From the NCBI GenBank assembly GCA_016748015.1, contig JAAOMT010000222.1, positions 65,924-129,923 of the forward strand: a DNA stretch of 64,000 nucleotides, written 5' to 3'. Positions within the stretch are counted from its first letter, which is position 1, and each line of letters begins with the position of its first letter. A program made the translations under genes and the position numbers. The DNA comes from Geosiphon pyriformis uo1 (taxonomy: Eukaryota > Fungi > Glomeromycota). Of the stretch, positions 621-58,149 are shown piece by piece. Under the pieces are notes generated by a model. That model searched no databases. It saw only the letters and a list, made by a program, of their open reading frames with translations, and was not told the origin of the DNA.

Positions 621-1600
621 TGTTACCAAATGAAATTAGAGATATTATTTAGCATGAAATTATCTTATAATTCTTATCATTAATTAGCATATATTATCAT
701 TTCAAATAATTACTTATTACATTAGCAAAAATGTCCGAAATTATCATTTAATTAATAACCCAAATTGTACACAACACAAATGTAACCTAATTGTGATGAT
801 TAATCATGCAATACCCCGAACTATGTAACATTCAAAAAGTTTGCCAAAATTTGTAGAAATTCACCGAAATAATTGATAGTTCACCAAAATATCTAATAGT
901 TCACTGAAATAACTTATAGTTTGCCAAAATGTATCTTTAGTTCAGCAAAATTTTAGAAAATAGCAAAGTTCAAGTTCATAAAATAGTGTTACAACAAGTT
1001 GTATAAAAGAAGAGCTTCTCTCTTCAAGAAAATGTATCTCACTTTAGATTTATCTCTTAAAACCGTTCCTATACACACAAAAAGAAATAAATATCAAATA
1101 ATTCAAAAAACCAAATTCTTTAATTATTGTACTTGGAAAATCCCCAAAACCCAACTAATATTTCGAAATTGATTAGCTACCAATTTCAGTAAACTGTTAG
1201 TGACTCCAGGCCTGGATAGAAAATGTTTCCTTTGATAAGATCCTATTTCTTTTACACTTCTTTTATTTTTCTTTCTTTTCTTATTACAATCATTAAGGTA
1301 GCCTACAGACGAGATTCCTGTAGAAGAGTTAACTTTCACAGCAAAGTAACTACACATTTTTAGTGAGCTTCCAGACGAGCAATTCCTGGGAAAGAGTTGA
1401 TGTTTACTACAATGTAACTACATAAAGCAACTGGCATGGAATTGGCCATTCCACTCATAAGTCCAGCAAGTTCAAATTATAGGAGATAATTTGAAGATAA
1501 ATTCAGTTACTGGAGGTTCAACCACATCTAGAAAACGTGAATTTACAGCAAATAAGTATCAACAACATTACAGAAAAGAGACCAAAAACCTCCAGTAACA
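621..1600 (+). repeat. Solo-type LTR of family B (980 bp)
   Basis: TGTTAC...GTAACA termini. Near-identical reverse complement of 27732-28711 and 36610-37272. TATA-like TGTATAAAAG near 1000 and short TTC(G/A)CC(G/A)AAAT repeats at ~840-950. Confidence 0.95.
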
Positions 1601-3918
1601 ACATGTATTAGTTATATAATAGAATGGAAATTGGTTGATAAATAGAGATAATTTCTCTCTTGTCAACAATTTTTTTTTTGCCATATTAACTGATATGTCT
1701 ATTCTACTCATTGATCCAAATTTCTGTATCCCTTTAGCTGTAATTCCTAATTCTTCTCTGTTTTTCACTGATACTAATTGAGCTATTTTAACCAAAGGCA
1801 GGAATATTGCCTGTGTTATCTTTTCATTTGGCTCTATGATATAGGCTTTTTCTGAGTTATTTTGTAGCATTACAATGATATTTTTTATATATTCTGCATC
1901 AATTATTCCTCCTTTGATGTTAATTCTCTTTTTTGCTAAACTACTTCTAAATGCTAATTAGACTATTGTTGTTGCTGAGATTTCCAATATTACTTTGAGA
2001 TCAATGCATGTGCATGAATATGGTTCCAATTTGATGACATTTTTTCCTGGATATCTTAGATTAAATCTGGCATTAGTATTATATGCACATTCTGGCATAA
2101 TACTTTTATTGTTGTTACTAAACCATCTGAATTCCTGCTCTTTGGAGAGATCAAGAAGCACTATGTATTGTTCAAAGTTTGAATCTGAGTTCGAATTGTT
2201 GGTATTGTTGTTGTCAATTTGCATAGAAGTGGAACTGTTGTTTTTGTTGTCATTGTTAGAGTTTGAATTGGAATTGAAAATTGATTTTGATTCTGATGTG
2301 CAGCTGCTAATTGGTTCATCTTTCTCTGAAATTGTGTAGATTATGTGTGATGGTGGATTGTAAATGAGATTATACTCATTACAATATTGAAAATTATATA
2401 AAATCAAATAATAGTTACATAGTTAGATGTTTATTTCTTCCAAATGCTGTTCCTGCTCTTTTTTTGTTGATGCCAAATTTTGATAGTGCTTATGAAACTC
2501 TTTTGGGCCTGTTTTTATGTCGAGAAAAACATCAAGGTTTAGAAAGAAGATAATATTAACTGGTTCTGAAGAATTATTTTTGATTTCCAATATTTTGTTG
2601 AGCATGACTTCTTTGACTTTGGCATTTACTATTTGCCAGATTTCATTCTCATCATGTGGGTAACTGTTCAAACAAGTTATTGTTCAATGCCAGACTGCAG
2701 TAATAGGAGTGCCATAACTGATTCAGTTACTTATGAGAATTGTGTATTGGCATGAAGCATCACATGTTTCTCCTTAACCAGAAATGTTGTTTCACATTTC
2801 TTTGTCAAGCAACTGTTCTTCACAAGTGAGACATAATTTGTTGTCCTACTTGTCTTATCATTTTGGATAGCCATACTATTTTCTGTGACATGGCTTGCAG
2901 TAATAATAGGTTTGCATTCAGTAATCTTCATCTGGCATGATCCAAGCTTCCATGGAAGACAATTTTTTCTTATAGTCTTTACACCTAAGTGGAATATGAG
3001 GTGGTTCTGGCCTAGTATCAGTGGAGTATAAAATTTTCCAATCACTAGTTTCTGTGTTGTCATTGGTCTCCTCCAGTATGTCTTTTTCCTTTTTTTTCTC
3101 TTTTTCTTTGTTTTTTTTTTCCCCAGTCTAGAATTGGTGGTAGTTTATTGTAGTTGTTATTGGCCCAAAAAACTTGATAGGCTTCCCAGATAGGTTTTCT
3201 TTCTTCTTTTTCTAATTCAATGAGTGGCTTGTTGTTGATCATGGTTTTGAAGTAACCACAAGTGGCTGGCACTCATGTGTGGTGGCTGTCTTGACTGAGC
3301 TGCAATTCTTGAGTGTTCCAGTCAAGTATGGCATTGGTTTTGAACAGCTAGTTGTTCCCAATAAGAGCTTAGTACTAAGTTGCTTCTATTACTAATATTT
3401 TGATTGGTATTATGATGCTGTTGACTTCAAATGGGAAGTTGTCTATTTCACCAATTGGAGTTTTGGTTACTCTATTAGTGATTATAATTCTAGTGCTGGC
3501 AGCATGATCAACTCAACAACTTAATTGGTCCATAAGTTGTTATGTGATAATGCTGCCTGCTAATCCACTGTTTAGAATCAGTTTAATGTGCTGCCCATTA
3601 ACTTTAGCATCAATATACATTGCAGTGATGAGTTTTGATTCTAGAACAGCTCTATTGAATAGTGGTATTTTAACTGGTTCTTTGAGTTCAAAAAAGAAGA
3701 TAATGATAAGTGATTCATTCTTAGTAATGATTGCTGGCAGTATATTGTTAGTAAGTGACTGCTTTTGCTTGGTTTCCAAGTGGTTGGATGTGGTGTTTTC
3801 TAAAGTTATCAAGAGACTTAAATAGTTCTGAGAATTCAGATTCTGAGTGTACCCAGTTTCTAAACTCTACTGTCATAATTCCGATAGTTGGTTGAAAAAA
3901 CTGGGGATTAGTTAATGG

Positions 3919-4298
3919 TGTTATGGTTTAAGAATTTAGCAAAAAGAATTATAAAAATAATACAAACTATTCAATCATAATATAGCACAGTAATAATCTT
4001 AGAAAGGTAATGATTAACATAGTAGCAACCACCATCTCGCGATAGTGGCAAGCACCAGTTCACAATAGCAGCCAACACCAACTGGTGATAGCAGCAAACA
4101 CCAGATTGAAATATCAAAAAAAAAAAAAAAGTATTACAATGTGTTTTCTCGTAGAACTACAAACATGTATATATACAGTAGTTTTAATATTGGGAAATAA
4201 TCAATCAAGTAATAAAAATCATAACTTATCAAGCAATAGATCCAATTTTATCCAACAAACTCCACTTTAAATCATACTTTCAAATTAAATATCCCAAA
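3919..4298 (+). repeat. 5' LTR of element C (cut short by an assembly gap)
   Basis: Matches 12529-12638 and 12884-12920. The 20-N gap at 4299-4318 hides the remainder and the PBS. Confidence 0.9.
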
Positions 4299-4382
4299 NN
4301 NNNNNNNNNNNNNNNNNNAAGAAAATCAAAAAAAGGAAATAATAATTAGCAATAATTCATTGCTAAAAAGGAAGAGACAAAA

Positions 4383-6050
4383 GTGGTGACAAAAACCCCT
4401 AATCTTACTGTTCTTGAATTCTGCCATGCTATTTACACACAAAATCAAAGTGATCTTGAATTACCAGAAGGGTGTTGTTCAGCAGAATCTGCCCTCACTT
4501 ATTATATCAATGCCAGAATAAATTATCATATAGGAAAGGAAGAAGAACCACACGACGCAAAACTTGGATTGTATAGAGAATTATCACAATACACTACAAA
4601 AGAAGTAGCAGTAATAGCCACAACTATTGTCAAAATCCATCGAGAAATTGAGCAATACGCCAACAAAAATTTTCCAATATCTACAGGAAACATTAGGGAA
4701 TGTGCCAACAAAACCAAAAAAAATTTAGAAACTAATCAGAAAAGTAACCAGCAAAAACTAGGAACACCAGCTCAAACACCAAAGAAAACTGTCACTCAAT
4801 CAATAAAGAAACAACGTATTTATTCACCAGAAGATAAATCATACCATTTTTCACCAGAAAATAAGATACAAATTCCATTAGGAGCTGCATCATCATCAAC
4901 ATCAACTCCACAAACACCAAGAACTCCTAGTTATACTGATAAATTTAAACAACGTAACTGGGGAGACATACCAATTACAGGAGGATATTCATCACTATTC
5001 CAAAACCCTCTTTTTCAGCCAAAATTTAGAACAGGGTTTGAAAACCGTGAAGAGGAGTCTGAATCGGAATCCGAAAAAGAAACCAGCGAAAAAACAATCA
5101 CAAGACCAGTCACTGGAACAAACAGCCAGTCCAGAAACCAAGAAACTCGTGATCAAGAGGAAAAACTGGATATAAGGGAAACCACCTTTAGGAACACTCA
5201 AGGAAATATCATCCCACCTCCTCTTAGACCAATAAACCCACCAGCAGAAAATGGCAATGAAATGACCACACCATACATTGCAAGACTAACAGATTTCTCA
5301 GGAGAGGAAAAAGAAACGGACGTGTACACATGGCTTAGAGAAGCACAAAAAGCCATCCAGGCAAATAACTGGAACGACCAAAGAGCAATTCAAACATTAC
5401 CTTTCTTCCTGAAAGGCACAGCTGACTTGTGGTATCAAAGCCTGGAAACAAAACCCACGAGCTTTGCCGAATTTAAAAATACACTCCTGGAGTATTTTAG
5501 CGACCCAAACACTGTAATCCAACTACAGAACGAATTCAATACTATCAAGCAAAATACTGGTGAAACTGTCACCCAATACCTTGCTCGATTCAATCGAATT
5601 TGCCATCAGATTGAAATGATTAAACAAGGATACTACACTGATTCTCAGGTTTTAAATCAGTTTATTAGAGGATTAAAAAGCAGCATTTTAGGAAAAGTAC
5701 ATCCTGCCCACCCTAATTCCTTACCAGAAGCCGTTACACTTACCAGAGCCCTTGAATCGGCTGAGAAAGAAGCTAACTATAGTCAAATGGTTAACATGGT
5801 AATGGAAGAAAATAAGACAGAAACATTAAAGAAAAGAGTAATGCGATTAGGAGAGGAACTCTCTAAGAAAATAGAAAGTTACCTCATCCCGGATCTGAGA
5901 AAAAATACATACCAACCACTCCAAAGATGCAGCCAGAAAGTCAGCAACAGTCGAAATAATCGCTCATCGTGCCAAGAATTCAGAACAGAAATACATGCCT
6001 GTCATTTTTGCAAACACGTAGGACATTTGATTAGTCAATGTCGAACGTGA
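4383..6050 (+). CDS. gag: Gag of element C (N-terminal extension, retrotransposon capsid, CCHC zinc knuckle)
   Basis: 555-aa ORF with WLREAQKAIQANNW, FLKGTADLWY, QFIRGL and CHFCKHVGHLISQC (CX2CX4HX4C). The terminal TGA is probably CGA>TGA because the same frame resumes at 6171. Confidence 0.9.
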   Translation: MVTKTPNLTVLEFCHAIYTQNQSDLELPEGCCSAESALTYYINARINYHIGKEEEPHDAKLGLYRELSQYTTKEVAVIATTIVKIHREIEQYANKNFPISTGNIRECANKTKKNLETNQKSNQQKLGTPAQTPKKTVTQSIKKQRIYSPEDKSYHFSPENKIQIPLGAASSSTSTPQTPRTPSYTDKFKQRNWGDIPITGGYSSLFQNPLFQPKFRTGFENREEESESESEKETSEKTITRPVTGTNSQSRNQETRDQEEKLDIRETTFRNTQGNIIPPPLRPINPPAENGNEMTTPYIARLTDFSGEEKETDVYTWLREAQKAIQANNWNDQRAIQTLPFFLKGTADLWYQSLETKPTSFAEFKNTLLEYFSDPNTVIQLQNEFNTIKQNTGETVTQYLARFNRICHQIEMIKQGYYTDSQVLNQFIRGLKSSILGKVHPAHPNSLPEAVTLTRALESAEKEANYSQMVNMVMEENKTETLKKRVMRLGEELSKKIESYLIPDLRKNTYQPLQRCSQKVSNSRNNRSSCQEFRTEIHACHFCKHVGHLISQCRT

Positions 6051-9000
6051 ATGATGTAGAAAGCATGCGAAAATAATTACTATGTGCCACCCCAAATGCC
6101 CAGAAACCAGTACATGCCAATACCACACCAATATCCCACCACGTATCATAATCATTACTAGCAACAGCCCATGATAGCCAACCCGAATTGGAGTCCCGAG
6201 GCCCAAAATCAGCCCATGTGGAACCAGAATGCGTTGGTCCAGAGGAATCCAAACCGCACTGGAACCAATCAGCAAACCAATCCAAACTACCAAAATTATC
6301 AACAAACTTACCTTAATATACCAGAAAACTTGATTATCAGAAACAATGACAGTAGAAACATAAACAGAACCAAGAATTCCTCCAAATTGAGCCAGACAAT
6401 ACCACCAGCAGTTGCCACCGAAGATAGCAGCCTCGCAGCTATTTTTCCTTTTGAATTAGAGGAAAACGAGGCTATGTTCAGTGGAGCAGCATTGGATGAA
6501 AANNNNNNNNNNNNNNNNNNNNGCGTTGGTCCAGAGGAATCCAAACCGCACTGGAACCAATCAGCAAACCAATCCAAACTACCAAAATTATCAACAAACT
6601 TACCTTAATATACCAGAAAACTTGATTATCAGAAACAATGACAGTAGAAACATAAACAGAACCAAGAATTCCTCCAAATTGAGCCAGACAATACCACCAG
6701 CAGTTGCCACCGAAGATAGCAGCCTCGCAGCTATTTTTCCTTTTGAATTAGAGGAAAACGAGGCTATGTTCAGTGGAGCAGCATTGGATGAAAAACGCCC
6801 AATCACTGCTATATATATGAAAGCCACTGTAAACAATACCCCAATCAAACTTATCTTAGACAGTGGATCCGCTGAAAGCATCATAATGCTTCAACTAGTA
6901 AACCAACTGGGTTTCAAAGTTGATCATGCCGCGACATCCCAAATCATAACAGCCAATGGAAGTACAAAGCTGCCTCATGGCGAAATCGACTTATTCCCTT
7001 TCAAAATTAACAGCATAGTAATACCTACAAAAGTATTAGTAATGGACGCTACATAATATCAAGTGTTAGTAGAGAATAACTGGCTAACAAAAGCCAATGC
7101 CACCCTAGACTGGACCACTCAAGAGCTTCTGATCAATTATAATGGCCACCAGGCCAAAATTCCAGCCACCTGTGGCCATTTCCAAAAACCCAGCGCCAAC
7201 CAAAGACCTATCTTTGAATTTGAGGAAAATTCAGCACTACCAGCCATCGAAACCTATTAGCTCTCTTGGGCTGATGACCAAAGAACAGGACTACCAGCCG
7301 TACCAATGTGGACCAGCAAAGAAAGATCCAAATAGAACCAGATAAGTTCATGAAGAAACCACCAGCGATGCAGACCAAAGCTAGAATGCTCAGTTTGCAA
7401 GAAGAAACTCTTGTCTATGACTGCATGCAGCGCACCAGATGAAGACCCAAGAAACCCCACCCACTACTATTGTAACCATTGTAACAAAGAAAAATACGGT
7501 TACCCAGAAAGACACGGAAAATGGGACGAGGAACTGTGCCTCACTTGTGGAGAACCATTACCAAGAAGATGCGACTAGAATGACATACCAGGCAGAGAAG
7601 GAACATGTGACGCAACTTGCCAATACACGATCCTCATCTGTAACTGGGTAAGAGAAGGAACGCCATTCGAAGCAGTGTTCAACAGAGCATTAAAAAGACT
7701 ACAGCACTACCCACACGACGAAGACAAGCTGTACAACACCGCACAAGCCAAAGTAAGAGGAGGAACCACTGAAGAAATACGATGTTGGAAAGAGTCAGCC
7801 GAAGTAGCCGACAAAGTCGCCAGCTACAATATGTTCGACCCAGTGGACGAATTCCAAGACTACTACCAACAACTATGCCCCACTCGACAAAAGCAAGAAC
7901 AATACCTTGCCCAAATCAACACTTACCTCTGCGAAAACTGTCTCATTCCATGCCAAAATCAGTGCTGTGAAGAGTGTCAAGACGAAAGAGACTTAGAAAG
8001 AAAAATGGAAATTGAGAATCAGCAATCTCAAAATCAATCAATAAATCAACAAGACTCATCTAACGGTCCCGAGTCAGAAAAATTTGTAGCCTATACTGAC
8101 CTAGAACAGGTAACCAACATCTGATACTTTGACAATGGGCACTTAGGAATAATACCCGAAAGAGCCCATTCAACCGACGCTGGATTTGATCTACGTTATC
8201 TGGAAGACCAATCCACAATGTTACCATCCAGGAGCATCACCAAAATCAACCTAAAAATAGTAGTTGAAATTCTGCCAGAAATAATGGTTCAAATGGCATC
8301 ACAATCAAGCCTCACGAAAAAAGGAATAAGCGTTCAAGGAGGAATAATTGACTCTGGATACACTGGAAATTTGATGGTTTTGCTACAGAACAATTCAGAA
8401 AAGCCTTATACCATTGAATCTAAAGAAAAAATTGCACAAGCAATTTTTCTACCATTGGTAAAAATTGGGAAATTCATGCCAGTGGAAAATCGTGAGGAAT
8501 TGTCACAAACAACGAGAGGAACTTTTGGTTTCGGATCGACAGGAAAAAGAATTGAAGCGAATTTCACTAAAACAATAGAGGAAAAAGGCAAAGTAATTAA
8601 AAATAAGCAGTCCATCACACTCCTACCATATGGAAAATCAGAAATAAGAATAAAAAGGACAATTAAAGAAAAAGACCTAATATTTGAGCCCTACCCAGAA
8701 ACTTGCCAACAGTTTCTTATAGGACTTACTAACCTTTTTATTCCAGCTGATAAAGCTCAATGGATAAAAATTTCTATCGCAAACACCACAGAAAACCCGT
8801 CTACATTCCGGAAGATACCATCATTGGATACCTTGGAATGGAGCTAGAAAACGCGTCAACATCACAAGAAATTCTAAATTTCTCAGAAATCGCCTTCTAC
8901 TGTGAACTCACTTCAATAAATTGGCAACAATCATTAGAATGCTATCAATTTATGCCAGAAGAATTGGCCAAATTAAACATTGGAACAATGGATCCTGACC

Positions 9001-10376
9001 AACAGCGACAATTAAAAGCATTAATTTTAAAATACTCTGATATATTTTCAAGAAATGGCGAATTTGGAAGAACCAACTTGGTTCAACACCAAATTCCCAC
9101 TAGAGACGCCAGACCTGAAAAACAACACACTTACCATGTTCCACTAATGGAGCATAATTTTATCAGAAAAGAAGTCCAAAGCATGTTGGAAAAAGGAATA
9201 ATACAACCATCAATGAGCCCATGGTTCTCACCAGTTGTTTTAGTAAGAAAAAAGAACGGAAAAATTAGATTTTGCATCAACTATCACAAACTAAACAGCA
9301 AAACAACCAAAGACTCATACCCAATATCATTAATTGACGAAATCTTTGACGTTTTTGGAGGAGCAAAATGGTTTTCTACACTGGACTTGACCAGTGGGTA
9401 TTGGCAAGTGGAAATGGACCCAAAAGACAGACATAAAACAGCATTCACAACACAAAATGGCAATTATGAGTTCAATGTAATGCCATTTGGATTAACAAAC
9501 GCTCCTGCAACATTCCAAAGACTAATGGACGTAATTTACTCTGGAATCCTGTGGCAATTCATTGTTGTCTACTTGGATGATACAAATGTTTTCTCGTCAA
9601 AATTCACGAATCATCTCCAATATTTACAACAAGTTTTTGAGAGATTGAGACACGCTGGACTTAAACTAAATCTAGAAAAATGTTTCTTTGGGAAAAATGA
9701 GCTAGCATTTTTAGGACACGTAGTTGGAAAAGATGGAATAAAACCAGATCCATCAAAAATAGACAAAGTGAAAAATTTTCCAGTACCTCGAAACGTTTCA
9801 GAAGTTAGAAGCTTTTTAAGACTCACATCTTACTACCGCTGCTTTGTAGAAAACTTTTCAAACATTGCCAAATCCTTTAATTACCTACTATCTAAAAATG
9901 TGAAGTTTGAATGGACTAAAGCACAACAAAAAGCTTTTGAGTACCTTAAACAAAAGCTCATTGAATTACCAATAATGATCTATTCAAATTTCAACAAGAA
10001 ATTCATTTTGGCCACAGATGCCTCTGGAACTGGACTTGGAGCCATTCTGTCACAAAAAGATAATAATGGAAGAGAACGTGTAATCACTTATGCCAGCAGA
10101 AGTCTCAGTATGGCAGAACAAAACTACGCAGCACATGAACTTGAATGCTTAGCAGTAGTCTGGAGTTGTGTTCACTTTGACACATATTTACAGTACCAAC
10201 TCTTTGAGATTATGACAGATCATAGAGGTCTGGTCTGGTTAAATAACAAGAAAGTGCTAAAAGGAAAATACGCCAGATGGTCACAAATGTTAGCACCATA
10301 CAATTATATTATCAAATACAAAGAAGATACCAAAAATGCTAATGTCGACTGTTTGTCAAGAATGAGACACACATAA
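6051..10376 (+). pseudogene. pol: pol portion of ORF1 of element C: aspartic protease, Cys-rich domain, dUTPase, RT, RNase H
   Basis: LILDSGS at ~6850. CxxC cluster at 7380-7990. dUTPase motifs DAGFDL, GGIIDSGYTG, KIAQAIF and RGTFGFGSTG at 8150-8550. RT motifs LDLTSGYWQ, MPFGLTNAPATFQ and YLDD (9570). RNase H ATDASG...ELECLA...TDH...NANVDCLSR. A few nonsense codons and one frameshift near 8795. Confidence 0.92.
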
Positions 10377-10405
10377 AAATTACCAACCCATCTGCCACAA
10401 CAACA

Positions 10406-11079
10406 ATGAACAACCACCTTTACAAAAACCTCAGCCAATACTTGGAAACACTACAAATAGACAAAAAAATGCCAGTAAAAGAGCTAATTAAGCTCCAAAA
10501 ATTAGCAAAACACTATTTCATCCAAAATCACATATTTTATTACCGGAATCGACAAAATCCAGATAATCCATTAAGAGTTATAACCACGGATGAAAAAGAA
10601 ACTATCTTATTTAACATGCACTCAGATATTCATTCAGGCCACTTTGGAAAAACAGCAACCATCCAACGTGCAACTAGCCATTACTATTGGCCAAAAATGA
10701 GTTCAGACATAATCCAATACATAAGAAATTGTGACCCATGCCAATGAAGAGAAGGAGCAAAAACAACGGAATTATTAAGACCAATAAAAGTTGGACAGCC
10801 ATTTGACAGAATCGGAATTGATTTAGTTGAACCCTTACCAATAACAACAAGAAACAACCATTATATTGCAGTAGTCATGGACTATCTCACCAAATGGCCA
10901 GAAGCTAGAGCTATTAAAACAGCTGATGCTATTTCCATAGCTCAATTTGTACATGAAGACTTAATTTGCCGACATGGATGTCCACAAGAATTGCTATCAG
11001 ATCAAGGCACACACTTTGTAAACAGCACCTTAAAAGAACTTAGCCAAAAATTTGGAATCAAGCGACCACTGTCATCACC
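10406..11079 (+). pseudogene. Integrase of element C (separate ORF; 3' part lost in the gap)
   Basis: HHCC zinc finger (HSDIHSGH...CDPCQ) and rve core IGIDLV, MDYLTKWPEA, LLSDQG. Own ATG at 10406, after the RNase H stop at 10374-10376. Confidence 0.9.
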
Positions 11080-11847
11080 NNNNNNNNNNNNNNNNNNNNN
11101 NNNNNNNNNNNNNNNNNNNNNNNNNNNNNNNNNNNNNNNNNNNNNNNNNNNNNNNNNNNNNNNNNNNNNNNNNNNNNNNNNNNNNNNNNNNNNNNNNNNN
11201 NNNNNNNNNNNNNNNNNNNNNNNNNNNNNNNNNNNNNNNNNNNNNNNNNNNNNNNNNNNNNNNNNNNNNNNNNNNNNNNNNNNNNNNNNNNNNNNNNNNN
11301 NNNNNNNNNNNNNNNNNNNNNNNNNNNNNNNNNNNNNNNNNNNNNNNNNNNNNNNNNNNNNNNNNNNNNNNNNNNNNNNNNNNNNNNNNNNNNNNNNNNN
11401 NNNNNNNNNNNNNNNNNNNNNNNNNNNNNNNNNNNNNNNNNNNNNNNNNNNNNNNNNNNNNNNNNNNNNNNNNNNNNNNNNNNNNNNNNNNNNNNNNNNN
11501 NNNNNNNNNNNNNNNNNNNNNNNNNNNNNNNNNNNNNNNNNNNNNNNNNNNNNNNNNNNNNNNNNNNNNNNNNNNNNNNNNNNNNNNNNNNNNNNNNNNN
11601 NNNNNNNNNNNNNNNNNNNNNNNNNNNNNNNNNNNNNNNNNNNNNNNNNNNNNNNNNNNNNNNNNNNNNNNNNNNNNNNNNNNNNNNNNNNNNNNNNNNN
11701 NNNNNNNNNNNNNNNNNNNNNNNNNNNNNNNNNNNNNNNNNNNNNNNNNNNNNNNNNNNNNNNNNNNNNNNNNNNNNNNNNNNNNNNNNNNNNNNNNNNN
11801 NNNNNNNNNNNNNNNNNNNNNNNNNNNNNNNNNTCAAAATTAAAACA

Positions 11848-12450
11848 ATGATACTTATTCCAGAAAACATCAACAATATAACTCAACAATTAGTTGAAAG
11901 CTTACAACAATTAAAATCCGATCTAGAAATCACAGTTAATAGCTCCAAAATAACATACATAAAAAGAACAATAGAAAATCCAAAAACAAGAAAAGAACAT
12001 AATTTTGAACCATATAATATTGCCAAATATAACAACAAATTTATTAGCAAAGTTATTGAAAAATTAGAGATAGCATTGGGCAATACATTAATAATAGAAG
12101 AAATAGAAATAAGTGAATTAACACCAGACATATTTAGCAATTTGAAAACGAAATTTCCAATTAATTACTGTTATTATCAACTAGGAAAGCACTTGAACAT
12201 ACAAACATTATACTCAAAAGACTTAACTAGAGTGTTTGACAAAACAACTATCCAATTATTAGAATCTTTCATTGGAAAAACCAATACTACATTCCATTCA
12301 AAAACAGTTTACAGAATTTTCAAAGCATTTGAAAACTGTCACAAATTATTGTTGGACTCAATCATGAACATAATAACAACTAACAGTATTGGACGACTTA
12401 CCAACTCGCAATTTCAAGAATTACAACAACAAATTAATAACCAGTATTGA
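11848..12450 (+). CDS. ORF3 of element C: conserved accessory protein of unknown function (200 aa, intact)
   Basis: Open ATG-to-stop ORF between integrase and PPT. Aligns by eye with ORF3 of B (28680-29399) and A1 (23575-24204). Confidence 0.8.
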   Translation: MILIPENINNITQQLVESLQQLKSDLEITVNSSKITYIKRTIENPKTRKEHNFEPYNIAKYNNKFISKVIEKLEIALGNTLIIEEIEISELTPDIFSNLKTKFPINYCYYQLGKHLNIQTLYSKDLTRVFDKTTIQLLESFIGKTNTTFHSKTVYRIFKAFENCHKLLLDSIMNIITTNSIGRLTNSQFQELQQQINNQY

Positions 12451-12496
12451 ACCACTATAGTAACTTAGAATTTAATGAAGAAATTAACTTCGATTT

Positions 12497-12528
12497 CGAT
12501 GGAGCTCAATCTTGAAAGGAGGGGATAA
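12497..12528 (+). promoter_or_regulatory. Pre-PPT motif and polypurine tract of element C
   Basis: CGATGGAGCTCAAT followed by GAAAGGAGGGGATAA directly before the TG of the 3' LTR. Confidence 0.85.
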
Positions 12529-13423
12529 TGTTATGGTTTAAGAATTTAGCAAAAAGAATCATAAAAATAATACAAACTATTCAATCATAATATAGCACAG
12601 TAATAATCTTAGAAAGGTAATGATTAACATAGTAGCAANNNNNNNNNNNNNNNNNNNNNNNNNNNNNNNNNNNNNNNNNNNNNNNNNNNNNNNNNNNNNN
12701 NNNNNNNNNNNNNNNNNNNNNNNNNNNNNNNNNNNNNNNNNNNNNNNNNNNNNNNNNNNNNNNNNNNNNNNNNNNNNNNNNNNNNNNNNNNNNNNNNNNN
12801 NNNNNNNNNNNNNNNNNNNNNNNNNNNNNNNNNNNNNNNNNNNNNNNNNNNNNNNNNNNNNNNNNNNNNNNNNNNNNNNNNNNCTCCACTTTAAATCATA
12901 CTTTCAAATTAAATATCCCAAAAAACCTTTAAAATCAAAAAGAAATGAAAAAGAATATTTAAAACTGAACTATCACAACTCAAAGTATTAAGAAACTTAC
13001 TTGTATTATTTATTGAATGAAACTATCATTCATCAACTGAATCCCTTGGAAGAATAATCCTTGATCAAGATTATTCACATTGTTACTAATTGATAAAAGC
13101 TTTATTGTAAGAGTAGAAGAGTGCTAAAGACCATTAATATTCTGTGTTTCTAGATTAGAGAAACATATCAGGCAATTGCAAGGATAGCCTCAGAGAAGAC
13201 CCCAAACAGTGGGTAGATTTCAGTTCAGCCTCTGAAAAGGAGTACATAAATACACACAACAATCAAAAATTGAAGAATAATTTACATCACAACAGTAAAA
13301 AGAAAGCCTTCAGTGTAACAGTGACATTATCACACAAATAGAATTGAGGAACTCACGAAAGACTGATTGCAATTAAAATGGAATATCAGCAATTAAATAT
13401 AACAAGAAAACCATCCTGTAACA
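12529..13423 (+). repeat. 3' LTR of element C (internal N gap)
   Basis: TGTTAT...GTAACA, preceded by the PPT and followed by TSD ATGG. Confidence 0.92.
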
Positions 13424-23574: not shown

Positions 23575-24204
23575 TTAATATTGAGCTCCGTCAAAATCTA
23601 ACTCATGTAATTCTCCTTCTTGAAGTATTTTCTGGATTTTGTTTTCGAGAATTACTTGTGTTATTTGGGTCTGTAATTCTTCAAATTGAGCATTGGTGAT
23701 TTTTCCCAATTGATTACTAGTAACCAGATCCATTGCTCTGTTGAGCAATATTTCTGGTTTATTTTGAAATGCTGTGTGTATTCAGTATATGGCTTGGGCT
23801 TGTGTGGATAAGTTGTTCTTTCTCACAAAATATTCTAATTGTTGTAGTACTCCTTGGTCAAATAATTACTTTGTTTTATCCGTATATAGATTCTGGATAT
23901 TTACGTGTTGTCCCAAGTAAAAATAACAATAGTTTCGTGGAAATTGTTGTATCCATCAATTCCAAGTTTCTTTAGTCAACTCTTGATATAGTGACTCTTT
24001 TGTTGATTCTTTTATTACTAATTTTACTTTTGCCATGATTTTGTCCACAGTATTTTCAGTTTTCTTCTGTGTTCTGAGTTGAAATATCTTTCTAGTATCT
24101 TAATATTGAATGGTTTGTTGATTGATTGTAATCTCCATTTCCTGGTGTTGGATTAATTGAAAGAGTTGTTGTGCTAGTGAGTGAATGTTGTCTGTAATTT
24201 CCAT
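23575..24204 (-). pseudogene. ORF3 of A1 (nonsense mutations)
   Basis: Manual translation MEITDNIHSLAQQLFQLIQ...FPRNYCYFYLGQHVNIQNLY...QLGKITNAQFEELQTQI matches ORF3 of C (FPINYCYYQLGKHLNIQTLY...IGRLTNSQFQELQQQI). Confidence 0.8.
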
Positions 24205-27200
24205 TTTTTTGATATTTCCTGTTGCGTCTATCATGTTTTTATATATTCTTTTGATGGATCAATTTAACGTGTTGTTGTCGATAATAATGATTGGTTCCCG
24301 ATCTCGTGGAATTTCATCTGGTTGGACTAGTATTCTCTGTACTCCTAATTGTGGAATATTACTGGTAGATGGTAATGTAATGTTGTGATATGGTTTCAGT
24401 CAATCTCCATGTACTGCTTTGGTTAAAATTTTGTTATTCAATCTTAATTTGTAAGCTCCATTTCCTAGACTTTCTTCTATGTGAAATGGTTCATTCCATT
24501 TGGGGTCAAATTTTCCACTCCATTGTTTTTCTGCTTTGGTACAATGTAGTAATACTTTGTCTCTGATCTTGAATTCAACTGGTTTGTCTGGTAGTTGACT
24601 ATTGTGTCTTCCTTTCTGTGTTTCTTGTGATTTTTGGATATTATCAGCTGCTCTTCTTTGTTTGTTTTCCAATGTTTCCATTAAGTCATATGTTCTTCTC
24701 AGCAATGTTTCTTGAAAATTTTCCTCTGTTATTGGTTCAGCTGGATATGTATTAATTTCTCTCTCTACTGGTAACATTGCTATTCTCCCATATACTAATT
24801 CAAATGGTGTTGCTTGTGTAGTATCTTGTTTCATTGTCCAATAAGCAAATAGTACTAATGGTATAAACAAATCCTAATTGTTCTGGTTTTCTTGGCTGAG
24901 CTTGGCTATTGTTTTATACAATGTTCTGTTGAATCTTTCTACTAATCCGTTGGTTTGTGGATGGTATGGTGATAATAATAGTCTCTTGATTCCGAATCTT
25001 TGGCTCAATTCTGTTAATGTTCTGTTCACAAAATAAGTTCCTTGGTTTGATAATAATTCTTCTGGACATCCATGTCGACAAATCAAATCCTGATAAACAA
25101 ATTCGGCCACGGATTCTGCATCCACTTTTTGAATTGCTTTTGCCTCTGGCCATTTAGTGAAATAGTCCATAGCTATTGCTATGTATCTGTTTCCTCTGCT
25201 GGTGATTGTTAATGGTCTGACTAAATCAATTCCCATACAGTCAAATGGTTGTCCCACTTTGATTGGTCTTAATGGTTCACTGGATCTTGTTCCTCCTCTT
25301 TGCTGACAAGCATCACAATTTTGAACATATTAAATAATGTCTGGGTACATTGATGGCCAATAGTATCTTTTTTTAGTTCTTTCCATTGTTGCTTCTTTGT
25401 GAAAATGTTCTGCTGTTGGATTTGAGTGCATGTTGAATAATATTGTCTTTTTTTCTGGCTCCGTAATTACTCTGGTTGGTTGATTTGGATCTCTTCTATT
25501 TTTCTGATAAAGTATATTTTAGTGGGTGATAAAATATTTTGATTGTTGTTTGATACTCCTTCGTTCTGTATGAGATAAATTCTCCTTGAACTGTTGAGTA
25601 TTTAGATAATATTGCAATTGTTGATATTTTTGTATGTTCATCTTTTGTTGTATTTTTCCATTGGTATTGTTCTGGTTTTATTATATTTTTGGGTTGAAAT
25701 GTTTTTAGATTTGTCTTATTCATGATAAACCATCAGCATTTCCATTGTTTTTTCCCTTTTTGTAATGTATAGTATAATTGTATGATATGAGTGCCATTTT
25801 CCATTTTAACTGTCTTCCATCTCCAAATTCTTGTTTTTGGAGTGATGTTAATCTCTTGTGATCTGTGTATACTTCAAACTTCTGGCTCAAGTATTCTTTC
25901 CATTTCATGATAGCCCAGTATATTGCTAAGTGTTCTTGTTTTGGTGTTCTATAGTTCTTTTCAGCTGGCGTTAAACCTCTGCTGGCATATACTACTGGAT
26001 GTTCTCTGCCATCCGGTCCTCTCTGAGATAATACTGCTCCCAATGCTTGGCCAAATGCATCGGTGGTGATGATGAATGGTTTGCTGTAATCTGAATAGAT
26101 CAGTACTGGAGCTTAGATAAGCTTTTTCCTCAGAATATCAAAAGCTTCTTGTTGACTTTTTGTTCATTCATATTTCGAATTTTTGTTTTGCAGTTGATTG
26201 AGTGGCTGCGCTATCTTGGAAAAGTTCTTGATAAAATGATAATAGTAGCTGGCAAATCCCAAGAATGATTTCAGTTCTGTTATATTGGTCAGCACTGGAA
26301 AGTTCTTTACTATTTCTATTTTCTCTGGATCTGTTTTAATGCCATCTTTGCTGACTATGTGTCCCAAGAATTTGAGTTCCGTCTTGCCAAAGAAGCATTT
26401 TGTTGTATTCAACTTCAGTCCTGCTCTTCTCAGTCTTTCGAACACTTGTTGAAGATAATAAAGATGATCATCAAACGTCTTTGAGAATACATTGGTGTCG
26501 TCCAAGTATACAACTACTGATTTTCACAATAAGCCAGTATAAACGATTTCCATTAGCTGTTGGAAAGTTGCTGGGGCATTGGTTAAGCCAAATGGCATCA
26601 CTTCAAATTCAAAATTTTCTTCTCTAGTAGTAAATGCCATCTTTTCTTTGTCAGCTGAATTCATGGCTACTTGCTAGTAACTACTGTCCAAATCTAATGT
26701 GGAGAACCATTTGTTCCCACCGAAAGCATCAAATAATTCCTGTATTTGTGGAGTTAGATAACTGTCTCCATGAGTTATACCATTGAGTTTCCTGTAGTCT
26801 ACACAAAACCAGATTTTTCCATTTTTCTTATGAACAAGTACCACTGGTGACAATCATGGGCTCATTAATGGTTGAATTAGCTCGTTGTCAAGCATTCTGT
26901 TTATCTCTTGATGAATAATCTCATGGCTGGCTGGCAGCACTCTGTATGCTCTTTGTTTGATTGGCATTGCATCTCCAGTCTTGATCTGATGTTGGATGAT
27001 GTCAGTTTGGCCAAACTCATTTTTACTGGCAAAGATGTTGTTGAAATTGTTGAGTAACATCTTGAGCTGTATACATTGGAATGGATCTAAGTTTCCTATG
27101 TTCATTTGTTCCAATTGTTCTGGTTGGAGCAAATAACATTCGTCTCATCCATAGATTGTCTGTGATGTGATGTCAACATATCCACAAAGTTGTGGAAAGT

Positions 27201-27731: not shown

Positions 27732-28711
27732 TGTTACTGGAGGTTTTTGGTCTCTTTTCTGTAATGTTGTTGATACTTATTTGCTGTGAATTCACGTTTT
27801 CTGGATGTGGTTGAACCTCCAGTAACTGAATTTATCTTCAAATTATCTCCTATAATTTGAACTTGCTGGGCTTATGAGTAAAATGGCCAATTCCATGCCA
27901 GTTGCTTTATGTAGTTACGTTGTAGTAAACATTAACTCTTTTCCAGGAATTGCTTGTCTGGAAGCTCACTAAAAATGTGTAGTTACTTTGCTGTGAAAGT
28001 CAACTCTTCTACAGGAATCTCGTCTGTAGGCTACCCTAATGATTGTAATAAGAAAAAAAAGAAAAATAAAAGAAGTGTAAAAGAAATAGGATCTTATCAA
28101 GGAAAACATTTTCTATCCAGGCCTGGAGTCACTAACAGTTTACTGAAATTGGTAGCTAATCAATTTCGAAATGTTAGTTGGGTTTTGGGGATTTTCCAAG
28201 TACAATAATTAAAGAATTTGGTTTTTTGAATTATTTGATATTTATTTCTTTTTGTGTGTATAGGAACGGTTTTAAGAGATAAATCTAAAGTGAGATACAT
28301 TTTCTTGAAGAGAGAAGCTCTTCTTTTATACAACTTGTTGTAACACTATTCTATGAACTTGAACTTTGCTATTTTCTAAAATTTTGCTGAACTAAAGATA
28401 CATTTTGGCAAACTATAAGTTATTTCGGTGAACTATTAGATATTTCGGTGAACTATCAATTATTTTGGCAAATTTCTACAAATTTTGGCAAACTTTTTGA
28501 ATGTTACATAGTTCGGGGTATTGCATGATTAATTATTGCAATTAGGTTACATTTGTGTTGTGTAAAATTTGGGTTATTAATTAAATGATAATTTCGGACA
28601 TTTTTGCTAATGTAATAAGTGATCATTTGAAATGATAATATATGCTAATTAATAATAGGAATTATAAGATAATTTCATGCTAAATAATATCTCTAATTTC
28701 GTCTGGTAACA
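27732..28711 (-). repeat. 3' LTR of element B
   Basis: Reverse complement of 621-1600, TG...CA termini, adjacent PPT. Confidence 0.95.
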
Positions 28712-29399
28712 TAACCTTCTCCTCAAGACTGAGCTCCGTCGAAGTCCAAATACTGTCTGTTATTTCCAGATAATAATCCAAAATTATTGAAGAAATTTGG
28801 TTTGAAAATTGTTGAAATTTCAGTTCTGTGAGCTTTCCAATGTATTGAATCTTCAAAGGTTGAAAAATTGGGTTTTGTAGTACGTTTTTACAGGTGTGGA
28901 ATAGGTCATAAAGTTTAAGAGCGGCTCTAAGCCTGTAGTGACTGTTTGTTAATTCAGCTGTTGTCTTGAATTCGTTGTGAAGTTGTTTTTGAATAGCTTC
29001 TTTTGTGAGGTTTGCTGTTGTAAGTTCCAGTTTCCATTTGTAGAGTGTTTTTCCAATGTGAAAATATCTATAAATTGGAGGATATTCAGTGTTTTCCTCA
29101 TTGAGACACAGTTGAAGTTTTTGTTGAATTGTAGCATTTGGTGGAATACTAATCGGAGTGAGCATTAGGTTTTCTCTTAAAGCAAGCTTTAAAAGTTCTG
29201 GGAGGTGAATTCCAGTATAATTTCTTGTATTCTTTTTATATGGGTGATATTTTCATGAATTTGGGGCTAAATTTGTAACTACTTCTGTTTGGGTATAATT
29301 AATGTGGTTTCCAGTAACAGTAATAGATAATTCAGATATTGTTTTTAAAGCTAACATTAGTTTTTGGGATAATTGTTGAATGTTTTGAGGAATAGTCAT
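28680..29399 (-). pseudogene. ORF3 of element B (239 codons, one internal TGA)
   Basis: ATG at 29399 (MTIPQNIQQLSQKLMLALKTISELSITVTGNHINY) is in frame with ORF 28680-29165. Homologous to ORF3 of C. Confidence 0.8.
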
Positions 29400-40200: not shown

Positions 40201-41936
40201 ATTCTAAGAAATAGAGCTTATAAATTGAAATAGAACAACCAAATCTTAGCCAAAGCAGCACATAGTGATTGACTGAAACCATATTACTATATAGTATTAC
40301 AATCTACCAGTAATATTCCACAATTAGAAGTACAGAGAATATTAGTCCAACCAGATAAGATTCTACAAGATCTGGAACCAATCATAAATATTGAACCAAA
40401 CACATCAAATTGAACAACCAAAAGAGTATATAAAGACACAGTATACATGACAAAAGCAACAAAAAAAAATGAAAATACCAGATCATATTCACACTTTAGC
40501 TCAACAATTATTTTAGGCTTTAAGTCAACAACAAGTAAACATAGAAATTATCATTAACAACCAAATAATCTGTTATCAAAACACTAAACAAAAAAGAAAA
40601 AATACACTATACCAGCAACCACAAAAACAATCAATAAACTGGTCAGATAAAATAGTAGAGAAAGTAAAAAACACTTTTGGAAAGATAACTATTATGGTTC
40701 CAACAGAAAAACTGGCAAAAAAAAAATTGAAACCAATGAATAGACCAACTTCCAATGCCATATTGCTACTATTAATTGGAACAAAAAATAGATATTTAGA
40801 AGTTATATCTTGATAAATCCAAAAAAATCTTTAATTAAGAGATAGTCCAAAACATTGAAGACATTATTGAAAAGAAAACAAACTTGACACTACACATTAG
40901 GACCATTTATCGATTACACACTATATTTCAAAACTATTCAGAAGTATTGTTACACTCAGACATGGAAACAATAACCATCAACCAATGAGGAAGAATGAAC
41001 AACTCACAAATTGAAGAAATAAAAAATAGGGTGGAACAAACAATACTTGAAAAAAAAGTACTCGATATAATTCAAAATAAGAATTTTGATAGAACTTAAT
41101 ATTAAAAAGAAGAAATAATATTACTCATAAAAAAAAAACAGATATAGAAAATAGTAAACCAATAGGAGAGTAGTAGTTAGCATATAAGCACATTGCTTAG
41201 CAATATGAAGCAATATTAGAAAATTAAGACACATTGTTCAGCAATATAAGCATTGCTCAAGAAATCATAGCACATCACTCAGAAATGTGAGCGATCTTAT
41301 AGAACATCAATTATGTATATATAGCAGTAGCATTAGAAAAAAAAAAGACAGACCTTTCAGTTTAGATTTAATCTAAGCAGCTTTTTACATCTCAAATACC
41401 AATAAATAACTATTCCATATCTCAAATTCACTCTTTACTATCAATACTTTATGTTAATAGTAATTGATACTTAACCACACTAGAACAATAGTTTTTGATC
41501 ACAGCTATTGACAGAATACTAACATTTATTGTCTTGGCTTATTTCTTTTATTTTTCTTTTGTTATTTTCATTTGTTGTACTAATTAATTAAAAAAAAAAG
41601 TGCTGAATTATTGATGTCAAGAATAGCCTGATAAAAGACTTCAAAAGAAGGATATATATTGGGAATTTAAAAATAGCTTATTGGAAAGACATCTCTACCA
41701 GATTACTGGCCACCACACTGAGAAAAAAATTCGATGGAATTGCAATTCTGGGAGGCTATTGGGAAGACAAATATTGAATTTCTGTCCATTATATAAAAAA
41801 CTCAACAACACAACTTTCAAACTATCAAAATCTTCAGATCACCCAAACTTTCAGAAATCAATACCATTATATTGATTAAAGCACCAAGTTATGGGTTTAT
41901 TATTTGATTTAAGATCTCAAATAATCACCTGTAATA
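37273..41936 (+). mobile_element. Gypsy A2, 3' half: RT, RNase H, integrase, ORF3, 3' LTR (decayed)
   Basis: Starts MLTIERK, the direct continuation of the minus-strand sequence ending at 1601. RT/RNase H/integrase fragments at 37609-39798. ORF3 relic ~40469-41105. LTR 41119-41936. Confidence 0.85.
41119..41936 (+). repeat. Family A LTR, beta type
   Basis: Follows a decayed PPT, has CACATTG..AGCAAT repeats, and is a close reverse-complement match to 51350-52139. Confidence 0.85.
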
Positions 41937-42256: not shown

Positions 42257-45200
42257 TGTTACAGGTAATTATTTGGGGTTTCAAAGCAAATAACAAACCC
42301 ATAATGTGGTGCTCAATAGCTTGAAATAATTGGTGATATCTGAAGATTGTTTGTATTTGAGGGTTTTGGTGGAGTTCTTTGTATAATGAACAGAGATTCA
42401 ATAGTGTTTCAGTAGTCTCCCAAAATCACAATTCTGTTAAATTTCTTTTTCAGCATGGTGGTCAGTAATCTGGCAAAGATGTTCTTCTGGTAAACTATCT
42501 TTAAATTTTCAATTCTATATCCTTCTTTTAGGGTCTTTTATCAGACTATTCTTGATGTCAATAATTCAGTACTTAATTCTTAATCAATTAGTAAACACAA
42601 AAATAAAAATAAAAAAAATAAAATAAAAAAAATAAAAAAAAGATAAAAAAAATAAGCCAAGGTGATTGCAAGTTAGTATTTCATTAATAGCCATGATCAA
42701 GAGCTATTGTTTTAATGTAGTTAAATATCAATTACTATCAACATGAAGTATTGATAGTAGAAAATAGATTAAGATAGTGAATAATTATTTATTGATATTT
42801 GTAAATGGAAAGGTTCCTTAGATTAAATCTAAATTAAAAAGTCTGTCTTTTTTACTTCTAATGCTACTATTATATATACATAATTGAGATTTCTTAATTC
42901 CTTAATTTTTTACACCAGGAATTCTACAATTTCTTTGAGAGAAATTCTGGAATTCTGGAATTCTGCAATTCCTTATATAAGAATTCTGAAATTTCTGAAA
43001 TCCTGCAATTCCTCTGAGAGGAATCCTGAAATTCTACATTTACTACATCTACTTCTGATTGGCTAATTTATATGCTAATATACTTCCTATATTCCATGAG
43101 TAATATTATTTTTTTCTTTTAATATTGAGCTTTGTCAAGATCTCCTAATTCTCCTAATTCTTTATCTTTAAGTATTTCTTGAACTTTTTTTTTAACAATT
43201 ACTTGTGTTATTTTGTTTTATAATTCTTTGAATTAGGCATTGGTTATTTTTCCCATTTGGTTAATAATAATAGAGTTTATTACTGGATTGAGTAAGATTT
43301 TTGGTTAGTCTTGAAATCCAATTTGTAATCAATAGATAACTCGTGCTTGTGTGGTTAAATTGTTCTTTCTTACAAATTGTTTAAGTTGTTGTAATATCTT
43401 TAAATTGAATAATCACTTTGTCTTATTTGTATATAAGTTTTGGATATTTAGATGTTGTCCCAAGTAAAAATAATAAAAATTTCTTAGAAATTGTTGTATC
43501 CATTACTTCCAAGTTTTTTTAGTCACTTCTTGGTATGGAGTGATACTTGTTGGTTTTTCTATTGCCAATTTTACTTTTAGAATTATTTTGTCAACAGTGC
43601 TTTCTGGTTTCTTTTGTACTTTGTATTAGCATATTTTTCTGGTATCTCAATATAAAATGATTTGTTGGTTAATAGTAATTTCCATATTTTGTTGTTGAAT
43701 TAGTTGAAAAAATTATTGTGTTAATGTATATATGTTGTTAATAATTTCTATTTTTTTTATTGTCTTTGTCATGTATACTATGTTTTTATATACTCTTTTG
43801 GTTGTTCAATTTGATATGTTTGGTTCAATAATTATAATTGGTTTCAGATTTCGTGAAATCTCATCTGATTGGACTAATATTTTTTGTACTCTCAGTTATG
43901 AAATATTACTGATGAATGCTGATACTATATTGCAATATAGTTTCAGTTAATTTCTATGTGCTGTTTTGATTAAGATTTTGTTGTTCAACCTTAATTTATA
44001 AGCTCTATTTCTTCTATGTAAAATGGTCTGTCCTATTTGGGATCAAATTTTCTACTTTATTGTTTTTCCACTTTGGTACAATGTAAAAGTACTTTGTCTC
44101 CAATTTTGAATTCAACTGGTTTATCTAGTAGTTGGTTATTGTGTCTTTTTTTTTGTTTTTTTTGTGACTTTTGGATATTATCAGCTGCTTTTTATCATTT
44201 GTTTTCTAGTGTTTCCATTAAGTCATATGTTTTTTTCAACAATATTCTTTGAAAATTCTCTTCTGTTATTGATTTTGTTAAATATGTTTTGACTTTTATC
44301 TCAATTGGTAATGTTGCTGTTCTACTATATACTAATTTAAATAATATTATTTGTGTAGTATCTTGCTTTATTGTCTTATAAACAAATAATACTGATGGTA
44401 TAAACAAATCTCGTTTGTTCTGGTTTTCTTGACTGATTTTGACAATTGCTTTACATAGTGTTCTGTTGAATCTTTCAATTAACCCATTTGTTTGTGGATG
44501 GTATGATAATAATAATGGTTTTTTTATTCTAAATCTTTAATTCTGTTAATGTTCTATTCACAAAGTGAATTTCTTAATTTGATAGTAGTTTTTTTGGACA
44601 TCTATATTAACAGATTAAATCTTGATGAACAAATTCAGCAACAAATTCTGCATCTGCTTTTTAAATGGTTTTTGCTTTTGGCTATTTGGTAAGATAGTCT
44701 ATGACTACTGCAATATATCTATTGTTTCTGCTGGTTATGGTTAATAATCCAACTAAAACAATTCCAATGTGATCAAATGGTTGTTCTACTTTGATTGGTC
44801 TTAATGGTTCACTGGGTCTTGTTTCTTCTCTTTTCTGACAAGCATTACAATTTTGAACATATTGAATGATGTTTGAATACATTGATGGCTGATAGTATTT
44901 TTTTCTGGTTCTTTCCATGGTTGTTTTTTTGTGAAAATGTTCTGCTGTTGGATCTGAGTACATGTTGAACAATATTGTCTCTTTCTCTGGTTCCATAATT
45001 ACTCTGGTTGGTTGATCTGAATTTCTTTTGTTCTTCTGGTAAAATATATTTTAATAGTTAATAAAATATTTTGATTGTTGTTTTATGTTGTTTTGTTTCT
45101 TTTAAGATAATTTTTCTTTGAACAATTGGGTATTTATATAATGTTGGAGTCGTTGATATTTTTGTATATTTATCTTTTGTTATATTTTTGGGTTAAAATG

Positions 45201-57907: not shown

Positions 57908-58149
57908 ACACTAAGCAAGATCTCATATCTGTAATCATATTTTTATCTGTAGAAAAGACATGTTTAAAAACAACAGATAATTTTTGAATTGCCAAATAAT
58001 TACAAGCCATATATGCAAAATAAAAAAATTGTGTTTGATATATCTAAATATTGAATTATTAATAAAATATTAATTTAGATAAATATTTTTTGTAATATAC
58101 TTTCTATCATATTATTATATTTATTTTTCTATTAGTTATTTTTTTAGAA

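Follow-up and report, generated by a model that had tools for sequence, protein, structure and literature searches.

Third ORFs in LTR Retrotransposons

Extra open reading frames (ORFs) of unknown function that do not encode an envelope protein are a described class among LTR retrotransposons, according to the accounts given in PMC7264820, PMC5408684 and PMC2864245. The ORF described here (ORF3) belongs to this class. As outlined in a review of plant elements (PMC7264820), aORF-3S and env-like ORFs lie downstream of pol and before the 3′ LTR in sense orientation, most copies of a family retain them and their function is unproven, all of which resembles ORF3. However, ORF3 comes from a fungal host and lacks a transmembrane segment, which that review gives as a mark of some env-like ORFs, and Pfam returned no match of ORF3 to any plant env-like family. 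The bdelloid elements Juno, Vesta and TelKA, as described in PMC5408684, share with the present elements the layout gag-PR-dUTPase-RT-RH-IN-ORF3, and their ORF3s are likewise family-specific, missing from some branches and, for some of them, 210–230 aa long. In contrast, the bdelloid products reported there are Env, transmembrane, GDSL or DEDDy proteins, whereas the Geosiphon ORF3 presents no membrane or catalytic signature. Among fungal Gypsy elements, a dUTPase between protease and reverse transcriptase (PosPlaTy3-5) and an "add. ORF of unknown function" are on record (PMC2864245); the elements studied here differ from those described there in lacking a chromodomain, a distinction that is drawn from the published descriptions.

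Two other systems provide functional models. CERV of the C. elegans element Cer1 is described in PMC10309623 as an element-encoded, trans-acting nuclear protein for RNA export, and VANC of Arabidopsis VANDAL/MuDR is presented in PMC13547354 as an anti-silencing factor, although it belongs to DNA transposons. We found no sequence or fold link between ORF3 and either protein. Our literature search, which covered work other than the Geosiphon genome paper, returned no description of this ORF3. By the sequence tests that we ran, ORF3 falls outside the characterized types of plant, bdelloid and fungal ORF3s and appears to constitute a new protein family within the known class of extra ORFs of LTR retrotransposons.

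An Additional ORF in a Ty3/gypsy Element of Geosiphon pyriformis

The window, i.e., the whole stretch of 64,000 nucleotides that we analyzed, is made up of nested and decayed LTR retrotransposons. Element C (positions 3919–13423, plus strand) is a Ty3/gypsy (Metaviridae) LTR retrotransposon that presents all the hallmarks of this group: the genes are ordered gag, protease, dUTPase, RT-RNase H and integrase, and the element possesses a polypurine tract (PPT), TG...CA LTRs and a 4-bp target site duplication (ATGG). Its 5′ LTR is visible at 3919–4298, directly downstream of ATGG, with the remainder in an N gap (4299–4318). The 3′ LTR (12529–13423; TG...CA; 895 bp as assembled, including an N gap at 12639–12883) is followed by ATGG, and the two LTRs differ at a single position over their first 110 bp. 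Between them, all on the plus strand, we identified the gag capsid region (5262–6050; Pfam Retrotrans_gag, E = 1e-14; Ty3_capsid, E = 1e-12), the dUTPase, located between protease and RT (8218–8847; Pfam dUTPase, E = 6e-18), the RT-RNase H (8760–10376; RVT_1, E = 6e-35; RT_RNaseH, E = 2e-36), the integrase (10406–11833; Integrase_H2C2, E = 1e-18) and the PPT (12515–12525). The C-terminal half of the integrase and its stop codon are masked by an N gap of 754 bases (11080–11833). Element C is itself nested within a minus-strand gypsy copy, between the gag (14545–13760) and the protease (3630–3388) of the latter. The pol frame of C also contains a Cys-rich insert with several CxxC pairs between protease and dUTPase (7380–8000), and a 272-bp exact duplication flanking a 20-N gap (6231–6794) has the look of an assembly artefact.

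The ORF3 of element C (11848–12450, plus strand; 200 aa) was considered intact in the original prediction. This proved wrong: a one-base frameshift near 12441 ends the ORF prematurely and removes about 23 residues that are present in other copies. The remainder of the C-family ORF3 is found in a shifted frame at 12444–12515 (plus strand; 23 codons and a stop), where it matches the tail of the database protein P0024 and ends at the PPT. Other copies possess an extra base behind 12441, which represents one third of the depth in run X1 and all of the depth in X2 and X3 (the contigs come from three runs, representing two samples at most; X1 is possibly the window's own source). Moreover, the database copies P0024 and P0145 continue through "INNTVLNHY" beyond the frameshift point. 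Together, these observations indicate that the C copy is truncated and that the ORF3 of this family is about 223 aa long and ends at the PPT. Comparison of element C with the X2 contig over 12017–12638 revealed 13 differences, of which 12 are T-for-C on the plus strand and one is A-for-G. Such a burst of C-to-T changes on one strand, found in mixed contexts, is what a processive deaminase or a RIP-like pass would leave. Changes of the C-to-T type are also seen in a second copy, A1, where they affect both strands.

Homologous Copies of ORF3 in the Window

A homologous sense ORF of 200–240 codons had been predicted in element C, in two further elements (A1 and B) and in three relics (r40, r43 and r58), and the homology was confirmed by tblastn and Smith-Waterman alignments. 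Using the ORF3 of C as a query against the window, tblastn recovered A1 (24198–23662; 33% identity; E = 2e-32), r43 (43751–43209; 31%; E = 1e-21), r40 (40475–41033, in two frames; E = 6e-20), B (29402–28788; 25%; E = 6e-14) and r58 (58188–58400; 31%; E = 2e-9), and the next match after these five homologs had an E value of 0.049. The three main ORF3s aligned significantly, with z scores of 44.7 (C-A1), 18.7 (C-B) and 11.5 (A1-B), and none of 500 shuffles scored as high; the weakest of the 15 pairs was B-r58 (z = 3.3; 4 of 500 shuffles as high). The four shared motif blocks noted earlier are present in the ORF3 alignment.

All six copies in the window are broken. The ORF3 of A1 (23575–24204, minus strand; 209 codons) contains four internal stops and is in the integrase frame, following the integrase stop (24261–24259) after a spacer of 54 nt. 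The ORF3 of B (28680–29399, minus strand; 239 codons) has a stop at codon 49 (29255–29253) and is separated from the integrase stop by an AT-rich spacer of 116 nt; it overlaps the PPT (28724–28715) and reaches 32 nt into the LTR, which starts at 28711. The relics are decayed ORF3s of the A type: r40 (40469–41105, plus strand) is frameshifted and r43 (43119–43751, minus strand) has nine stops, both being located downstream of an integrase, and r58 (58113–58481, plus strand) is the 3′ half of an ORF3. No pol was found upstream of r58, and at least six tandem repeats of 23 bp are located immediately upstream of this truncated copy (57663–57846). The window contains one more distant, heavily decayed gypsy copy (52300–55755, minus strand), whose RT is 31–37% identical and which has space for a short ORF before its PPT; searching this copy with the ORF3 profile detected no ORF3.

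Distribution of ORF3

The proteins closest to the ORF3 of C in the databases are Geosiphon pyriformis gene models (95% identical). A profile search matched 247 proteins among 4382 candidates. The 120 matches listed all come from Geosiphon and mostly belong to two B subfamilies (239 and 235 aa) that are about 65% identical, and every named homolog among them is a gene model of G. pyriformis. Full proteins of 239 aa are represented by 23 database copies, and one gene model holds a further lineage, D. Homology of ORF3 therefore spans five Geosiphon-type lineages (C, A, D, B1 and B2). The ORF3 of C found no match in the metagenomes searched with it, tblastn of phages and searches of prokaryote genomes returned no ORF3 match, and viral contigs yielded no match for ORF3 or for the integrase. 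The family may also resemble a large family of hypothetical proteins of arbuscular-mycorrhizal fungi.

We then scanned metagenomes with the integrase C-terminus, which yielded five loci (L001–L005) from 595 pattern matches, with 28 of 64 parts covered. Two of these loci, L002 and L003, form one family in which the integrase stop is followed by an intact ORF of 229–234 aa; as in B, this ORF extends over the PPT and into the LTR. Its motifs follow the same order as in Geosiphon, with a motif-level likeness that does not reach significance by itself (P = 0.03–0.05), and against the Geosiphon profiles 89–161 of 3000 shuffles scored as high (hhalign P = 0.10–0.25; pairwise z = 0.4–1.7). Based on position and motif order, the ORFs of L002 and L003 are likely homologous to the Geosiphon ORF3. 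In L002, a second gag-protease starts directly after ORF3 and one LTR (1599–5720), which would fit either two elements placed head to tail around a shared LTR or the junction of a circle. In L001 and L004, the integrase is directly followed by the PPT and there is no ORF3. An integrase tree of 10 rows grouped L001, L004 and L005 (97/100) apart from all ORF3-bearing rows; this tree contains one very long branch and has no firm root, and the 3′ end of L005 is uncovered. Because L001 and L004 do without ORF3, the gene is accessory, and these sequence comparisons indicate that it is an old but dispensable accessory gene of one clade of dUTPase-bearing Ty3/gypsy elements.

ORF3 Is Separate from the Integrase

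ORF3 was originally placed between integrase and PPT. This position holds for A1, B, r40 and r43, i.e., the four copies with a visible junction, all of which have an integrase with its own stop before ORF3 (B overrunning the PPT); for C the junction falls within the N gap, and r58 has no integrase upstream. The integrases studied here carry their own SH3-type C-terminal domain (SH3_Tf2-1 at integrase residues 243–301) and end without a chromodomain, and Pfam returned no chromodomain or SH3 family match for ORF3. Since the integrase has both an SH3 domain and a stop of its own, ORF3 is a separate ORF and not a known integrase C-terminal domain, to which no confident profile match was obtained.

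In these copies, decay frequently turns CGA and CAA codons into stops, and we therefore checked whether the integrase stop itself had arisen in this way. Variants at the A1 locus were drawn from 4916 contigs. Among the 40 variants listed of 85 (smallest listed share, 23%), none creates a sense codon at the first base of the A1 integrase stop (24261); the second base varies in 29%, with the stop preserved. For comparison, 93% of the depth has a C at the internal ORF3 stop of A1 (24102). The breaks in ORF3 are copy-specific C-to-T changes. Two in-frame stops separate the integrase and ORF3 readings in B, the spacer is 141 nt long in L002, and its length differs among copies of the A family (joints at 24207–24281). 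In the alignment, C, A1, B and r40 share the position of an ATG with A at −3. The domain is located at the N-terminus, or at most 13 residues from it, in 20 of 23 longer database proteins, and the other three have an internal ORF3 domain through gene-model joins; none of the 23 is an in-frame fusion of integrase and ORF3. ORF3 thus begins at an ATG of its own downstream of the integrase stop and is a separate ORF. It shares the frame of the integrase in A1, r43 and B, which would permit readthrough of the stop in the A family.

Selection and Divergence

Protein-level conservation had been taken as a sign of a selected ORF, and the substitution patterns agree with this view. Using the NG86 method, we estimated dN/dS at 0.22 for A1-r43 (bootstrap 95% interval, 0.13–0.35). 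Two other A pairs gave 0.22 and 0.27. The between-family values, for which dS is saturated, were 0.25 for C-A1, 0.41 for C-B and 0.67 for A1-B (0.35–1.04). Five of the six pairs thus fall between 0.22 and 0.41, A1-B being the exception with an interval that reaches 1.04. We also counted transversions, which C-to-T decay does not create: their numbers by codon position were 16/10/25 in ORF3 relative to 6/6/6 in the adjacent LTR. Frame-breaking indels are almost absent between A1 and r43. C and B are 30% identical in ORF3, 38% in gag and 56% in RT, so that ORF3 diverges about as fast as gag and faster than RT. These results support purifying selection on ORF3 as a coding sequence, common to diverged families.

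Predicted Fold and Conserved Residues

No 19-residue window above a Kyte-Doolittle value of 1.3 and no furin site (RX[KR]R) was found in the six window copies. Across 91 copies, the maximal 19-residue value ranged from 0.46 to 1.5, with none above 1.6, and the furin site was found in none. There was no confident match to env, and the claim that ORF3 is not an envelope protein therefore stands. We aligned six lineages (11 C, 3 A, 1 D, 88 B1, 50 B2 and 2 L rows) and observed that Y107, Y109, Y110, G113, K152 and R156 are conserved together with hydrophobic core residues. Apart from the basic residues K152 and R156, four apart on one predicted helix, no polar position is conserved across the six lineages, and neither an acid nor His or Cys is among the conserved residues. 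The pI of the core is 9.0–10.0 in the three lineages tested (C, B and L002). Conserved aromatic, glycine and basic positions without any conserved acid, His or Cys speak for a binding surface and weigh against an enzyme, and these residues would favor nucleic-acid binding over an enzyme or a movement protein. Enzymatic candidates (DEDDy and GDSL) were rejected, with no profile match and no conserved catalytic residues.

The AlphaFold2 model of B (45-row alignment) has a mean pLDDT of 74.8, rising to 81–94 over residues 81–210. It presents a helix (7–19), a hairpin (24–37) and a disordered stretch (39–64), followed by helices at 66–75, 91–99, 108–128, 133–148, 153–167, 171–175 and 184–189 and a long one at 192–229. 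The model of C is weaker (pLDDT 51.9) with the same order of elements. The predicted plan is therefore a helix and beta-hairpin (1–37), a loose linker (39–64), a compact helical domain (66–190) and a long C-terminal helix. No match to this model was found with Foldseek (best E = 0.14 in PDB and 0.041 in the viral set) or with VIA-align (best Z = 5.2, within its background), and this shows neither a new fold nor an absence of relatives. Sequence searches of PDB gave no match (best E = 0.56 in a separate search). The ESM Atlas had no usable match for the ORF3 of C, and its matches for the B core (0.91–0.94, with fewer than 170 shared features) were all to unnamed or unrelated clusters.

Some family searches returned candidates. 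The match to TTC3_9th (E = 7e-5) concerned one of 45 members, on a fragment with six X, and was taken as chance, like other scattered one-off Pfam matches. An unnamed phage family of PHROGs (phrog_23683) matched 26 of 45 members, only B-type rows (best E = 1.4e-4). In a scan of 24,736 Pfam families, DUF1016_N (PF17761), which we take to be a helix-turn-helix domain, matched four of 45 members (best E = 0.015), reaching 12.9 bits for P0048, under the Pfam gathering cut-off of 32.8. When we aligned the B profile to our own 8-sequence DUF1016_N alignment with hhalign, 63 columns aligned ungapped, including helices that read Y-(W/F)-x-I-G-(K/R) and N-L-x-x-(M/A)-x-x-(F/L)-Y, with another helix between them (P = 0.0025; probability 12%; above 60 of 60 column shuffles). 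The likeness is weaker for mixed profiles, is unsupported for L002/L003 (8 of 60 shuffles as good) and fails against E. coli YhcG alone. Among the structural matches listed by the fold searches, none was to a DUF1016_N fold. As described in PMC9881135, DUF1016 proteins comprise YhcG and relatives located beside restriction-modification loci; unlike them, ORF3 has no PD-(D/E)xK nuclease domain. Since DUF1016_N was chosen after scanning all Pfam, the resemblance falls under significance after multiple testing and provides only a weak lead.

A Conserved DNA Element before the PPT

Just before the PPT of C, we identified the element GGAGCTCA (12501–12508, plus strand). It is conserved as DNA in C, A1 (23590 region), B (28735 region), L002 (1574–1581) and L003 and is decayed in r40, r43 and r58. 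Extended to GGAGCTCA(A/G)T, it precedes the PPT in all ORF3-bearing elements, where it is read in different frames, whereas the ORF3-less L001 and L004 present GGGACGTT at that place instead. The DFDGAQ-like ending of C and A is in another frame in B and L002, which indicates that this stretch is conserved as DNA and not as protein. GGAGCTCA(A/G)T is likely a cis element.

Possible Functions of ORF3

The explanation that we tentatively favor, with well under even confidence, is that ORF3 acts in trans as a DNA-binding regulator on the LTR of its own element, where it would promote transcription or resist silencing. ORF3 would be made from a subgenomic message, spliced or reinitiated, and its product would be soluble and nuclear. 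Binding in trans to DNA of the element, most likely to the LTR, would occur through the basic helical core, with contacts made by the helix that carries K152/R156 and by the Y107-Y109-Y110-G113 cluster, and bound ORF3 would keep the element transcribed against host silencing. By analogy, the accessory regulators VANC (PMC13547354) and CERV (PMC10309623), as presented in these reports, may serve as precedents of regulators encoded by transposable elements. An anti-silencing role of ORF3, if real, would contribute to an explanation of why LTR elements underwent a burst in this lineage of fungi. A more specific scenario, which we consider quite unlikely, is that a Glomeromycota-type gypsy clade captured a prokaryote-like, DUF1016_N-like helical DNA-binding domain that became a self-encoded transactivator or anti-silencing factor, similar to VANC or Tat, and helped fill about 40% of the Geosiphon genome.

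The predicted basic helical domain would suit RNA or protein-protein binding equally well. The same basic-aromatic conservation and helical fold would fit an RNA-binding accessory protein that exports or protects genomic RNA, as Rev or CERV would, or that binds small or double-stranded RNA against RNAi; according to PMC10309623, CERV is such a factor and derives from a spliced LTR-retrotransposon message. The GGAGCTCA element, which all ORF3-bearing elements have at their 3′ end and which differs in the two ORF3-less ones, would be a candidate cis site, but it may merely serve PPT recognition in reverse transcription. With no Arg-rich motif and no known RNA-binding fold found, we regard this possibility as doubtful. 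Alternatively, ORF3 could be an integration-targeting module in the position of a chromodomain, either a low-level readthrough extension or a separate partner of the integrase, that tethers the intasome to chromatin or to other retroelements. Such a role, which we consider unlikely, would agree with the integrase frame shared by A1, r43 (one stop, 54-nt spacer) and B, with integrases devoid of a chromodomain and with the insertion of C inside another gypsy element. However, this nesting is expected because, as given in PMC11952901, LTR elements account for 41% of the genome of G. pyriformis. The two in-frame stops and AT-rich spacer of B, the longer spacer of L002 and the variable spacer of the A family also argue against targeting, as do the good-context ATG kept at an aligned place and the lack of fusions among the 23 longer matches.

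The hyphae of the host are coenocytic, and ORF3 could also be a particle-associated or movement factor that carries virus-like particles between nuclei. The env position and the long C-terminal helix, possibly a coiled coil, would be compatible with this role, but no membrane anchor, motor-binding or capsid-like fold was found and a shared cytoplasm would presumably require no special entry protein, which makes it improbable. Finally, the position of ORF3 and the breaks in six of six window copies could suggest a remnant of an envelope or fusogen, or a decaying captured gene without function. This is largely refuted already by the 91 of 91 copies without signal, transmembrane or furin features, by the low dN/dS and near absence of frame-breaking indels between A1 and r43, and by the 23 full database copies and the copy-specific nature of the breaks; we consider it highly improbable. 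ORF3 lends itself to simple binding and trans-activation assays: the protein is small and soluble, one of its domains is predicted with confidence, it exists in five diverged variants, and natural sister elements lack it.

ORF3 in Annotated Gene Models

ORF3 is carried by hundreds of LTR copies of G. pyriformis, which implies that many annotated "hypothetical proteins" are transposon ORF3s and not host genes. We counted at least 143 distinct protein clusters among those listed, nearly all of which are ORF3 or gene models joined to ORF3. In P0001 and its kin, a spliced 59-residue tail maps to the LTR (13160–13340), and this LTR exon, joined to a C-type ORF3 in many database models, is probably a product of gene prediction that inflates the host gene count.
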